This document shows, piece by piece, positions 1,351 through 58,025 of a DNA stretch of 64,000 nucleotides. A program made the position numbers and the translations under genes. Within the stretch, counting starts at the first letter, position 1; each line of letters begins with the position of its first letter. The DNA is taken from assembly GCA_964016885.1 (NCBI GenBank), contig OZ024761.1:22382001-22446000 (forward strand). Direction: 5' to 3'. The stretch comes from Eledone cirrhosa. Lineage: Eukaryota. Under the pieces are notes generated by a model. That model had not been told where the DNA came from, did no database searches, and saw nothing but the letters and a program-made list of their open reading frames with translations.

Positions 1351-3736
1351 GAGCTTACATGTCTGTAGAATACTGAGTCACTCACAGCTCTATAATAGTT
1401 TCTCCATGTTACACAAGGCCAGCAATTTGAAGAGAAGGTTACTGCCAAATTATTTCTACTTTAGGCGCAAGGCCAACAATTTTGGGGGAAGGAGAAAGTC
1501 GATTAAATCGACCCCAGTACATTACTGGTACTTTATTTTATCAACCTTGTAAGGATGAAGGGCAAAGTTAATCTCGGCAGGATTTGAACTCAGAACTTAG
1601 AAAGTCATAACTGAATACCGCAAAGCATTTTGTCTGAAGCTCTACTGATTATTGCCAATCTACAGCACTATAATACAAGATAGATTGTACCTGTTCAACC
1701 ATGTCACACTGATTCTCCCTGAGAACTTCTTATAGAACACATGTGTCTGTGGAGCAGTCAGCCACTAACATACTAATCTAATGAGTTGACTGTTCTGTTG
1801 ATCAAATAATTGAAACAGTTATTGTTGGACTCCAGTGGAGGTCCTTCTAATTAACCCCATAAATATTGATTGCCAAGCACTTAATTACTCTATTTACAAA
1901 AAATAATGAAAGGTAATTCCAACGTAATTTGGATTTTACACCATTATTGTCTCAAGTTTCTACACTTTCCTCTTGTTTGAATAATATATATCCTCCTTAT
2001 CCCCATCATCATCATTTAATGTCCATTTTTCCATGCTAGCATGGGTTAGACAAGTTGTCCTGTTGGTAGACAAGTCAGGACAGATGGACATGTCTTGCTA
2101 ATACAGAACTGTTTCTGGTTTGGTTTCTACGGCTGGCTGCTTTTGTCATGACACCTACACAACCACTTTATACATACTTACATACATACATACATACATA
2201 CATACATACATACATATATAATATATACATTCATTCATGTAGGTGTCACAACAAAAAGCACCCAGCTGTAAACGTGGTTGGCGTTAGGAAGGGCATCTAG
2301 CCCATGTAGTAGAAACCAAGCCAAAGTCAGCCTTGTGTGAGCAAAACACGGTCCTCCAATCAGGTCTCTCACAAGGGACAGCCTGTCTTACCCATGCTAG
2401 CGTGGAAGATGATGTTAAACGATGATGATGATGATATACACACACATGTACAATAATACACACAGTCATACATGCTGACTTTGGAGCAGTTTTGCTCAAT
2501 GACCGAAAGACTTAACAGAATTAAGATAATCAATTAATCGGAGGTAATTATCAAAATTAAAAATGTGAGGAAAGGATAGACAAATAATAGACTGAAGAAA
2601 AAATAGTTGTCTATTATTTCATCGCATTTTTAATTTGGTATATATATATATATATATATATATATATATATATATATATATATATATATATATATGTGTA
2701 TATATATATAGGAACGAGTAGGACCCCGACGCCTGAGATGTCCAGAATTAGCCGTCGAAACGGCTTGAGCTCAGCCGTCGGGGTCCTACTCGTTCCTATT
2801 ACCCACTCTACTACCCTAAGTATTGAGTACTTTGGTGCGTTATGGTCCACCTGGTTCCTTACCACATTTCCTTCGTTATATATATATATATATATATCAC
2901 AGTAAAAAGAGAATCAGTTTTGCGACGAAAGGAATTTATTGGACATATTACAATTGTTTCTCGGGCGACTAGCTCGAGGCACGATCGATGAGGTGATCAC
3001 ACCTGGCTCTTATATATATATACATATATATAAACCTGACAATTATATATATATATATATGTACACATCTGGAGAGGGATGGGCTCAACCAGGCTTAAAC
3101 TGCCCAAGAAACACTGTATGTCACTACAGCGCCTCTACGACTCTATCAGGAGTTATTGGACAATACCATATAATATATCATCATCATCATCGTTTTACGT
3201 CCATTCTTCCACGCTACCGTGGGTTAGATGAGTTGTCTTGTGGGCAATGCCAGGTCAGGCGACCATGTCTTGCTCATACGGGAACTGATTCTGGCTTGAT
3301 TTCTACAGCTGGATGCCCTTCCTAACACCAACCTCATTTACAGTGAGTGCTGGGTGCTTTTTTCCGTGGCGCCTACATATATATATATATATATATATAT
3401 ATATATATATATATATAAAACTTGTTGGTCTTCTCGTTGCTTCGGTGTCGTGGCTGGGGTTGCCTGCCACAGTTTTCAATTTGTCCTGCCGTCTGACGAA
3501 TGTTATTACTCTGAGCTTTCTCATGGAGTGCTTGGCTGCACAAATTCCTCCTCGTATCTTGTTGGCTTGGCTACAGCTGAAGCTTCGATTTTACTAAACT
3601 TCCTTTTATATATACATATATATACATATATATATATATATATATATATGTAAAAGGTAAACGGAAATAACAACAGAATCGGTGCAGTATATGGAAGGGA
3701 TATATTAGGTTAACGCTTGATATAGCAGGAAGAGGG

Positions 3737-3772
3737 TCTTAACGTTTCGGACGCTAGTCCTTCATCAGAAGA
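3737..3772 (-). ncRNA. Minimal type I hammerhead, family A
   Basis: Identical to 37182-37217 on the minus strand. Confidence 0.8.
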
Positions 3773-5268
3773 AAGAATGAGAAATAAGATAGATTGAGGG
3801 GACGGGCGGGATGGAATATATATATGTATATATATATATATATATATATATATATATATATATATATATATATATATAACGAAGGAAATGTGGTAAGGAA
3901 CCAGATGGACCATAGCACACTAGAGTACTCAATACTTAGGGTAGTAGAGTGGGTAATAGGAAAAAGTATGACCCCGATGGCAGAGCTCAAGCCGTTTCGA
4001 CGGCTATTTCTGTCCAGAAATAGCCGTCGAAACGGCTTGAGCTCTGCCGTTGGGGTCATACTTTTTCCTATATATATATATATATATATAGAGAGAGAGA
4101 GGGGTACTACAGCATGCATGAAAAGTCATGTCTTCTCTCCAACATGGAGCATAAAATTCCGGTGGAATGAGTAGAAATTAAAAATAAAAAGGAAATTTAG
4201 TTAATTTTCATTTTTTAAAATCTTTTAATGGACCAAAACACTAACTGGAGATGTGTGTGTGTGTGTGGATGAGGGTGTGTGTGTGTGTGTTATCTTCTCT
4301 GTTGACCTTCTGCTGCCCTGAGAGTAGCTGACCACTATTGTCATAAATATCAAGTGTCCTGACTACAGCACCAGCTTGGACTGGGAAACTGGTTCAAGAA
4401 AGAAATTACGATACAAGGAACTAAACTTTGTCGAAAATGATATTATTATATTTGACATTTCATTTTAATGTCTATAATGGATGACACTGAGACTGTTTTA
4501 TACATGTGTGTGTATATATATGTGTGTGTTTATATATGTGTGTGTGTGTGTGTGTGTCTGTATATATATATGTGTGTGTGTGTATATATGTGTGTGTATA
4601 TATATATATGTGTGTGTGTGTATATATATATATGTGAGTGTGTGTTTATATGTGTGTGTGTATTTATATATGTGTGTGTGTATATGTGTATATATATATA
4701 TGTGAGTGTGTGTTTATGTGTGTGTGTGTATTTATGTGTGTGTGTATATATATATGTGTGTGTGTGTATATATATGTGTGTGTGTATATATATGTGTGTG
4801 TTTATATATATGTGTGTGTTTATATATGTGTGTGTGTATTTATATGTGTGTGTATATATATATATATATATATATATATATATATGTTTGTGTATATATG
4901 TGTGTGTGTGTGTGTGTATATATATATGTGAGTGTGTGTGTGTGTGCAAGGCAATCAAAGTGTATACATTTTTGGGGACACCCTGTATACACACACACAC
5001 ACTCACATATATATATATATACACACACATATATATACAAACATCTATACACACACACACATATATATATACACAAACATATATATATATATACACACAC
5101 ACATATATAAACACATATATATACACACATATATATACACACACACATAAACACACTCACATATATATATACACACATAATATATATATATATATATATA
5201 TATATGAGTGTGTGAGTGTGTGTGTATATATATATATATATATATAGATGTTTGTGTGTGTATATATA

Positions 5269-5347
5269 TACAGTGTCCCCAAAAATGTATACACACTTTA
5301 ACAGCAAGGCAATCAAAGTGTGTATACATTTTTGGGGACACCCTGTA
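5269..5347. mobile_element. Very short Tc1/mariner-like MITE
   Basis: TA-CAGTGTCCCCAAAAATGTATACACACTTT...AAAGTGTGTATACATTTTTGGGGACACCCTG-TA. A solo right end lies at about 4948-4987. Confidence 0.7.
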
Positions 5348-56075: not shown

Positions 56076-56880
56076 ATTGGAAACCTTTAAAATAGGTGAG
56101 TTTATTTCATAGAACCGGAGTTGGTCTTGGCCAGTTGGTAACTAAAGGGTTCAAGTTTAAAAAAAGGCAAATTCATCTGTGGTAGGATTTGAACTCAGAA
56201 TATCTAAGTATGAAATAGAACACTATAATGCACCTGCACTTGGCACATTACCAGTTCTGCCAAGATAAACAACACACCTTTTCACACCTGAAAACAGAAG
56301 CACACAGGTTGTATTGATCAGTAGGTATTGAAGAAATTCAATGTATGTTGTATGAATTCACATTTGTATGAATGAATGGAGAAAGACAGCATTGTATGTC
56401 TCACAGCATATTGCTTCATCAATATATATATATATATATGTATATATATATATATATATATGTATGTATATATATATATATATATATATATATATATATA
56501 TATATATATATATGTATGTATATATATATATGTATATATATTTATATTTGTCGGATTTCCAACAAATTAAATACCCCTTCTACTTATATATATATATATA
56601 TATATATATATATATATATATATATATATATATATATATATATATACATCGTTTCTTATTGGCAACATGACCCTCCCAAAGCATAACAATATATATATAT
56701 ATATTTATGTATATATATATATATATATATATATGTGTGTGTGTGTGTGTGTGTGTGTGTGTGTGTGTGTGCATATATAGACATTACATCACTTCAGACT
56801 ACATCAGACAAGGCCAGACATATGTGATGTAATATATATATATATATACACACAGACATACATATATACATACATATATA

Positions 56881-57222
56881 TCATCATCATCATCATTTCA
56901 TTTTACGTCCGCTTTTCCCTGCTTGCAAGGGTGGGACGGGAACTGATTCTGGCTTGATTTCTACAGCTGGATGCCCTTCCTAACACCAACCTCATTTTCA
57001 GTGAGTGCTGGGTGCTTTTTTGCCGTGGCACCTCCACGACCACTTTGCAGTGGAATGATAGGGACCCCAGTCCCTATCATCTCATTTCTACAGCTGAGTA
57101 AACTGGAGCAATGTGAAATAAAGTGTCTTGCTCAAGGAAACAACACATCACCCGGTCTGAGAATTGAACTCACAACCTTTCGATTGCAAGGCCAATGCTC
57201 TAACCACTAAGCCATATGACTC
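56881..57222 (-). mobile_element. tRNA-derived composite SINE (family 1), full length
   Basis: Reverse complement of 53493-53822. Truncated copies lie at 59231-59496 (+) and 7241-7424 (-). Confidence 0.87.
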
Positions 57223-57236
57223 ATTCTCTATATATA

Positions 57237-58025
57237 TAGTACCAGTCAAGTACTGGGGTTGATTCTTCTATCTCTCTCGCTCTCTCTCTCTATCTCTCTC
57301 TCTCTCTCTCTCTATATATATATATATATATATATATAGTACCAGTCAAGTACTAGGGTTGATTCTTCTCTCTCTCTCTCTCTCTCTCTATATATATATA
57401 TATATATATGTAGTACCAGTCAAGTACTGGGGGTCAATTCTTCTCTCTCTCTCTGTCTCTCTATCTATATATATATAAAGAATGAATAATAACAGGTAGA
57501 CATCATAAAAAGGTAATTTATTCCGAGTGCTTACAAATGTTTCAACAGTATTTATACAGCCTAGTCATGCTATGTGCAGATTGGTAATTATTTGTTTGCA
57601 GAAACTCAATTTTCAAATGCTGCTTCAACCTTTTTATGATGTCTACCTGTTATGATGTCTACCTGTTATTATTCATTCTTTATCTACACTCCGGAATGCA
57701 GAAGGACCAGAAACTGAGTTTCTTCAACTATTCTCCCATAACTCGTTGAGTAACCCCTCACAGTACGTCGACTCTATCTAGTGTAGTAATTAAACATTAC
57801 TGCATTCAGGATAATCCTAAGCATTTCTTGCATAACCTAATATATATATATATATATAAAGTAGCAGCCAAGTACTGGGATTGATTCATCTCTCTCTCTC
57901 TCTCTCTCTCTCTCTCTCTCTCTCTCTCTCTCTCAAGTAGCAGCCAAGTACTGGGATTGATTCATCTCTCTCTCTCTCTCTCTCTCTCTCTCTCAAGTAG
58001 CAGTCAAGTACTGGGATTGATTCGT
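57237..58025. repeat. Six copies of a tagtaccagtcaagtactgggg-ttgattc-like block plus (TC)n/(TA)n, interrupted by a fold-back element at 57475-57840
   Basis: Three units lie at 57237-57470 and three at 57858-58025. Confidence 0.8.

Follow-up and report, generated by a model that had tools for sequence, protein, structure and literature searches.

A duplicated bulged stem-loop lies at a fixed distance from both insertion ends in Penelope-like elements assigned to the Hydra clade

The reverse transcriptases (RTs) of Penelope-like elements (PLEs) are the closest relatives of telomerase. Open questions about these elements include how the RT chooses its start site, why the tail is found on one arm of an insertion only, and why tandem copies are needed. 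That the tail often sits on one end only has already been published (PMC8557442, PMC3846280), and the first of these papers, Craig et al. 2021, gives the motifs RWK, DKT, CxCX5C, CxxC and CxH as diagnostic of the Hydra clade. For another element, Poseidon_Ac, the purified RT was found to start at two internal sites that lie downstream of the hammerhead, match genomic ends and bound the tail (PMC11167929); in the portions of that in vitro study consulted, the starts are located but not the RNA signal. Here we analyze 64,000 nt from Eledone cirrhosa (assembly GCA_964016885.1, contig OZ024761.1, positions 22,382,001 to 22,446,000, forward strand), hereafter the window, and describe a short, covarying, clade-wide candidate for such a signal that carries a prediction at the nucleotide level. 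A sequence-only reading of the window had noticed the bulged hairpin, although it missed that the motif is doubled in the full leader, with each copy at a fixed distance 3' of one insertion end. We propose, with a probability of roughly 0.6, that this hairpin is an RNA binding site that positions the RT for an internal start and is present twice per leader.

In full leaders the hairpin is present twice ahead of the ATG (HP1 and HP2), 34-165 nt from it, with an HP1-HP2 spacing of 76-108 nt in the families measured and 159 nt in family G (families are denoted by letters, and their hairpins in the window are listed below). Two fixed points mark where genomic copies end, one lying ~6 nt 5' of HP1 (the short end) and the other ~6 nt 5' of HP2 (the long end), and the tail is thus the HP1-HP2 interval. 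With microhomology allowed, the modal junction interval covers position -6 for 12 of 13 hairpins from seven families, the HP1 of family D giving -7; taking genomic ends as a proxy for starts of the complementary DNA (cDNA), the same 12 hairpins lie at a fixed distance from the start. Among 382 TA-joined 3' ends in 28 families, 122 fell at -12 to +1 of HP1 and 199 at the distal end; the tail interior had 16 and the upstream region 45, and many of these last are, by inspection, mirror arms or neighbors. The family L representative in this count is chimeric upstream and shows no short ends, and L is covered by separate end measurements. Distance from the hammerhead was considered as a ruler for the ends and ruled out, since it is variable, the core lying anywhere from 15 to ~180 nt from HP1. 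HP2 was found past the long end in families B, C, D, L and G and in four others. It was seen without selection in L, in D, in the family of locus L093 (described below) and in one more; for B, C and G, the search pattern needed only CTC soon after the tail end, leaving the 3' arm, the pairing and the open reading frame (ORF) unselected.

The two ends are also used together. Of 118 two-armed inverted insertions, 113 combined a short end with a long one; the two kinds of end occurred at similar frequency (230 short versus 277 long). The same pairing was found in unselected loci plus the window (66/68), after merging by family and size (80/85), without family B (71/74), and among insertions of at least 300 nt (37/39). 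This near-obligate pairing, and its tie to two hairpins, was not found in the literature searched. Some two-armed insertions have arms that were scored as different families (L003, L072, L110, L162 and window 26900-27241), and short plus long ends were seen in five of seven of these; some of these cross-family insertions may be one family split by clustering.

A hairpin that directs cleavage of the transcript ~6 nt upstream, followed by ordinary target-primed reverse transcription from the new 3' ends, would account for the fixed register equally well, and RNA-seq read ends have been reported at the start sites (Frangieh 2024, PMC11167929). However, free fragments should yield many short-short and long-long arms, and we saw only 5 among 118; moreover, the Poseidon product formed in vitro is described as independent of the RNA 3' end (PMC11167929). 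We consider such a cleavage-based ruler quite unlikely. Alternatively, the hairpin might serve some other step, such as cis-preference, translation control or ribonucleoprotein assembly, with ends made by TA microhomology alone and the pairing inherited from fold-back masters. The nearness of the hairpins to the ATG fits this idea, as do the long end of family E, which has no HP2, and the many family B insertions that share one size, near 193 nt. Nevertheless, TATA and ATAT words upstream of HP1 are mostly unused as ends, the pairing of short with long ends survives size merging, the removal of family B and the restriction to longer insertions, and the register is kept for both hairpins across seven families. 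A role confined to another step appears decidedly unlikely to us.

The presence of the motif itself is well beyond chance. The nine hairpins of the sequence-only reading all read as it described them, at its positions and on its strands, and a window scan for RCTC-stem (at least 2 bp)-loop-stem-TN-GAGY returned 18 matches at 15 sites, three of which matched on both strands, compared with a mean of 2.44 (maximum 8) in 200 dinucleotide shuffles in which simple repeats were kept in place. A (TA)n run lay within 100 nt downstream of 14 of the 18 matches, against 0.56 (maximum 3) in the shuffles. Five of the sites were new, while a sixth extra match (5987-6035, plus strand) is probably due to chance, lying 191 nt from TA and having a covariance-model E of 1.5. 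Where a CTGANGA hammerhead core is present, it shares the strand of the hairpin (9088 +, 18349 -, 26731 -, 3493 +), as had been claimed.

We then sampled 970 kb of the source genome (3.0 Gb and rich in microsatellites) as 97 other stretches at round coordinates, two of which adjoin the window. Bulges starting with T, on a stem of at least 3 bp, occurred 105 times, and 79 of these sat 25-130 nt before (TA)n; control bulges starting with A, C or G occurred 31, 6 and 13 times, with 5, 2 and 0 before (TA)n, or 7 in all. The positional bias near element ends is thus confirmed, and the shuffles and bulge controls rule out chance or simple palindromes as the origin of the motif. The density, with 5 TA-linked matches in 170 kb of the four largest contigs and 74 in 800 kb elsewhere, extrapolates to an abundance on the order of 100,000 copies genome-wide. 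From 39 hand-picked copies, including 7 in the window, we built a covariance model that recovered 13 window sites at E < 0.05, every one on the expected strand; being a short-loop model, it missed only the long-looped family G. The 39-row alignment is 98.5% paired and RNAalifold returns the same structure, with the consensus N-CUC-Y...R-UN-GAG-Y, usually followed by RCUNU. Because these rows were chosen with the structure in view, we give more weight to the pairing-blind tests described below. Against Rfam, the best 150 of 320 matches all fell below the gathering score, nearly all of them to microRNA models on simple or inverted repeats. The features of the window are as follows; "new" marks hairpins absent from the sequence-only reading.

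2805-2828, plus: HP1 of family B, on the long arm of a fold-back insertion at ~2711-2876 (short end left, long end right)
3508-3529, plus: hairpin of a further family, 15 nt past a CTGACGA core at 3493; long end ~3606; new
3927-3950, minus: HP1 of family B, insertion ~3879-4068; new
8733-8756, plus: HP1 of family B, insertion ~8604-8804
9088-9094, plus: hammerhead core CTGATGA upstream of the family C HP1; its mirror copy ends at 8984 on the minus strand
9195-9219, plus: HP1 of family C, insertion ~8887-9278 (short end left, long end right)
18265-18283, minus: HP1 of family E (a family without canonical HP2), insertion ~18222-18597
18343-18349, minus: hammerhead core upstream of the family E HP1, from the CTGANGA scan
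20224-20247, minus: HP1 of family B, insertion ~20176-20310; new
26304-26323, minus: HP1 of family D, insertion ~26248-26500
26608-26627, minus: HP1 of family D, long end at ~26544
26725-26731, minus: hammerhead core upstream of the 26608-26627 hairpin, from the CTGANGA scan
~26776-26867 and ~37735-37939: family L arms without the hairpin
44708-44753, plus: HP1 of family L, insertion ~44239-44791
45097-45117, minus: HP1 of a 5'-truncated member of a hammerhead-bearing family (the "orphan" of the sequence-only reading)
54172-54196, plus: HP1 of family M, long end at ~54282; new
57688-57751, plus: HP1 with a long apical region, family G, insertion ~57478-57839
59589-59607, minus: HP1 of family D, insertion ~59522-59888; new

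Judged by the diagnostic motifs, six of the seven hairpin families are end repeats (pLTRs) of Hydra-clade PLEs. Locus L093, from an unselected stretch, carries a hammerhead and the hairpin followed by an ORF with RWK, DKT, YRDD, CxCX5C, CxxC and CxH; among 30 loci of its family, the hammerhead is followed by the hairpin in 18, while 9 stop 8 nt short of the hairpin and 3 do not extend to the end. Other genomic copies of families B, C, D, E, G and L continue into Hydra-type ORF starts, and for L they show a Hydra-type RT and endonuclease upstream and HP2 plus the ORF start downstream. In family B, intact ORFs are found in tandem arrays that repeat every ~3.54 kb. Two such head-to-tail arrays (G000, C1:91476611-91487265 and C1:437200345-437210965) hold at least four near-identical elements of 3.53-3.54 kb, with the ORFs intact and no TA run separating the units. 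Intact ORFs of ~712-772 aa from the start Met were found at four loci (L316, L317, L320, L321), each a single ORF that combines an RT with YRDD and, C-terminally, a GIY-YIG endonuclease with Y[IV]G. Among 118 aligned relatives, RW[KR] is present in 116 and DK[TS] in all, and the elements have a CxCX5C linker, CxxC and CxH around a conserved E and N, no CCHH motif, and insertions into (TA)n. Pfam gave no match for two of the intact Hydra-type ORFs, although the predicted fold matches RTs.

This shared descent alters two statements of the sequence-only reading. The families it called otherwise unrelated encode proteins 41-53% identical to that of family B, and for its "orphan" hairpin there are at least 40 relatives in the genome, with a hammerhead core upstream that resembles that of L093. 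Putative hammerheads, recognized by a CTGANGA core, occur in families C, D and E, in the "orphan" family and in two coding families; no such core was seen in the window copies of B, L and G. Family L does have a hammerhead-like fold with the core CAGAAGA (window 44635 and 37877), and family B (window 2732) lacks a canonical core but shows GAAAC together with a long stem. Family M (L016, L017 and window 54054-54282) forms retrozyme-like tandem units of ~600 nt in which no ORF was seen; its HP2 variant has a U-U outer pair, and several of its genomic copies have a 3-nt bulge. The leader of family E (L282-L296) has a different 4-bp hairpin ~9 nt past the long end and 45 nt before the ATG.

Other carriers were considered and rejected. 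Helitron or miniature inverted-repeat transposable element ends, suggested by the fold-back shape, were dropped once the links to ORFs were found, as was Naiad once Hydra-type ORFs with a C-terminal endonuclease had been linked. Neptune-type elements, the first coding elements found via the Pfam GIY-YIG domain, have a different tail hairpin and lack the motif, and antisense hairpins beside them belong to separate or chimeric insertions.

Is the hairpin conserved beyond this genome? A scan of metagenomes gave 78 loci, drawn from the best 80 of 204 confirmed, at 35-43% identity. Within 260 nt upstream of these foreign ORF starts, a relaxed form of the motif occurred 79 times in 12.5 kb, compared with 3 times on the antisense strand, 1.15 times in shuffled sequence, and 36 times in 158 kb of ORF. 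Two copies were present in 25 (23 distinct pairs) of the 47 leaders with at least 160 nt upstream, mostly at a spacing of 59-73 nt. When hairpin arms were picked by sequence and position alone, so that the test was blind to pairing, pair 5 was Watson-Crick in 62 of 72 hairpins (46 C-G and 16 U-A) versus 38.9 in permutations, and pairs 6 and 7 were Watson-Crick in 40 each versus 21.6 and 17.7, levels reached in 0 of 10,000 permutations for each of the three pairs; pair 8 was not significant, and the outer pair was G-C in 65. Covariation in this larger set thus exceeds permutations without selection for pairing. It is clearest at the pair above the bulge (U-A or C-G). The weakest part of the motif proved to be the first pair, in which the sequence-only reading had seen covariation: in a control set this pair covaries as well, and two coding families leave it unpaired.

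Several further observations extend this conservation. The foreign hairpins keep a 3' flank of ACUNU and T/A at -6/-5, with a TA-rich sequence at -8 to -5, and the covariance model found matches in 23 of 25 loci outside its training set (some closely related to rows used in training), with 44 of its 47 matches there on the ORF strand. At 13 of 18 informative foreign loci, those whose 3' repeat neither reaches the contig end nor runs on, the repeat halts between 5 nt before and 1 nt into the hairpin arm. By eye, three of the six new Hydra consensus sequences published by Craig et al. 2021 (one from a coral, two from a sea cucumber) contain the exact motif, which Hydra-1_Ajap has twice before its ATG; a crustacean consensus carries a variant, and in the other two the motif was not seen. 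The earlier suggestion of a conserved cis-acting signal of PLEs is thus backed by position, covariation and conservation across species, and the RT recognition or priming role that it raised is the one we favor.

A signal at the level of DNA is another possible reading. The GIY-YIG endonuclease could recognize the motif in extruded or single-stranded element DNA and cut ~6 nt 5' of it, trimming the cDNA or donor to two ends. Craig et al. 2021 attribute the tail to "EN-mediated resolution" (PMC8557442), and a Drosophila virilis endonuclease needed tail sequence for recognition (Frangieh 2024, PMC11167929); folding does not tell the two strands apart, and the sequence at -8 to -5 is TA-rich, as the target is. 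However, in Poseidon the genomic ends fall at the sites where the RT starts on RNA (PMC11167929), G-U outnumbers A-C 17 to 7 on the sense strand whereas the cDNA is antisense, and a spacer of variable length between covarying pairs speaks against a plain double-stranded site. We regard recognition in DNA as unlikely.

Returning to RT positioning, the clade, the duplication, the fixed register, the covariation and the pairing of short with long ends are supported directly, while the steps that would connect them can be sketched. The RT would grip the base of the stem, the U bulge and the 3' flank, and the UA-rich stretch 5-8 nt upstream of the hairpin would anneal to the 3' end left by a nick in the (TA)n target, priming the cDNA. 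A hairpin would then not be copied by the RT that it positions, and its absence from the cDNA it would direct favors action on the template. Terminal repeats would lose HP2, since this hairpin lies 3' of its start site and would remain uncopied, and only tandem, run-on or circular RNAs would therefore be competent to yield full-length copies. We also put forward, tentatively and at somewhat less than even odds, a concerted double priming in which two RTs start 6 nt upstream of the two identical docking hairpins on opposite (TA)n strands and the cDNAs fuse. Here a single RNA would carry two RT molecules, one at each hairpin, that prime from opposite target strands, and the two cDNAs would grow toward each other and join, giving a head-to-head insertion with the tail on one arm.

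A number of observations weigh against our reading. Family E has a sharp long end but no canonical HP2, and the outer pair is unpaired in one family with intact ORFs and in the HP2 of family G. We can only infer the clade of the "orphan" family, since none of the 20 copies examined runs on into an ORF, and a further search gave no match. Among the 47 foreign leaders, 13 have only one copy and 9 have none, and 5 of the 18 foreign 3' ends are off-register. The permutation controls ignore relatedness, and on a quick tree of 29 proteins, all from our own set, pair 5 of HP1 shows only about five independent switches, with four mis-partnered rows corrected by eye. The pairing-blind test within the source genome is noisier (38 of 81 versus 22.2 for pair 5), and it is there that pair 1 covaries in the control set as well. 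Finally, folding in local context is weak for several copies, with predicted pairing anywhere between 0.0 and 0.99, and the sense strand fares no better than the antisense, while the excess of G-U over A-C on the sense strand is a modest asymmetry (p 0.03).

The predicted structure of a Hydra-type protein (pLDDT 93.1) had TERT as its best Foldseek match. Matches aligning from residue 1 of the predicted protein were telomerases, for example human TERT 454-1052 (Z 13.6, rmsd 3.6, 360 aligned residues), and this part of TERT binds RNA. Since the top Z among the fold matches (16.4) went to the RT core of a diversity-generating retroelement (DGR), we read the match as a generic RT plus an N-terminal extension. 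A sequence search of solved structures returned no matches, and a homodimer prediction for residues 1-490, run without an alignment, gave a score of 0.00 (mark 0.32), which speaks neither for nor against a dimer.

Several other elements were noticed along the way. Neptune-type elements (L105:2279-2400 and 7258-7400 on the minus strand, L113, L117 and L061) have, where the tail begins, a small hairpin of another kind, ACUCGUGU-loop-ACAC-CUC, and hammerhead-like cores of UUGA(U/A)AA rather than CUGANGA; this hairpin is possibly a counterpart signal. An abundant minimal-hammerhead family without the hairpin is present at window 3650-3815 (-), 6378-6576 (-), 25909-26053 (+), 30448-30530 (+), 37106-37311 (+) and 45192-45323 (-), and at L086 the end of this family was found downstream of a GIY-YIG remnant of another PLE type. 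A third PLE type, with YVDD and ~25% identity to Neptune-type ORFs (L115:3826-6074 and L119:1712-3364), is probably Penelope/Poseidon. Window 49247-52302 (-) holds two LINE reverse transcriptase ORFs of 658 and 372 aa, 77% identical over ~1 kb, which we take from their motifs to be RTE-type.

Positioning of the RT start would likely explain both the long-known one-sided tail and the fold-back shape, and a precise positional rule for a duplicated stem-loop makes an old question testable in a genome where intact young copies are present. The motif also serves as an annotation marker for an abundant clade that Pfam missed here. If the concerted double priming is true, the hairpin would also provide a portable tag of ~40 nt for programmable internal initiation.

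The motif is real, clade-wide and duplicated, and apparently undescribed: no description was found in the open literature searched, a scope that leaves aside subscription journals, Repbase notes and the supplementary figures of PMC11167929, and neither "hairpin" nor "stem-loop" occurs in the main and supplementary text consulted for PMC8557442. The elements here share with the Hydra clade as described by Craig et al. 2021 the same protein motifs, (TA)n targets, partial tandems, inverted copies with 5' truncation, a tail on one side and, in several families, hammerhead cores (PMC8557442), although tails here measure ~60-160 nt versus 30-40 nt there. Poseidon_Ac likewise has AT-rich targets, extension of both target strands and a predicted dimer (PMC11167929). 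Unlike the leader hairpins described here, its starts lie within the ORF, in an AC-rich stem loop, and its binding motif was placed only within the first 172 nt of the ORF; the portions of that study consulted report no duplicated positioning element or paired use of sites (PMC11167929). Non-LTR retrozymes and PLE hammerheads (Cervera and De la Pena 2014, PMC4209133; bioRxiv 10.64898/2026.07.22.740005) also include short hammerhead-bearing repeats derived from PLEs, but our motif is distinct from the ribozyme, lies 3' of it at varying distances, and no test here marks it as catalytic. In Neptune-type PLEs, the motif was absent from all three leaders printed and from all 17 3' ends, most of them tail-less, and model matches near Neptune-type ORFs are separate TA-bounded insertions or lie on the opposite strand.

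The closest functional parallels would be other stems that serve RTs. In the telomerase template boundary element, hepadnavirus epsilon and the DGR spacer RNA, the point at which the RT begins or stops copying an internal template is set by a small stem bound by protein. The likeness is one of proposed function, as distinct from identity of sequence or structure, and the hairpin described here differs from those stems: it is found 3' of the start and in two copies, and the target-primed starts that it would direct are on two strands. Given that the RTs of PLEs stand closest to telomerase, an RT-docking stem in these elements bears on how template RNAs became anchored; if the concerted double priming holds, the hairpin would be the counterpart, in the sister group of telomerase, of the stem that anchors the template RNA on TERT.

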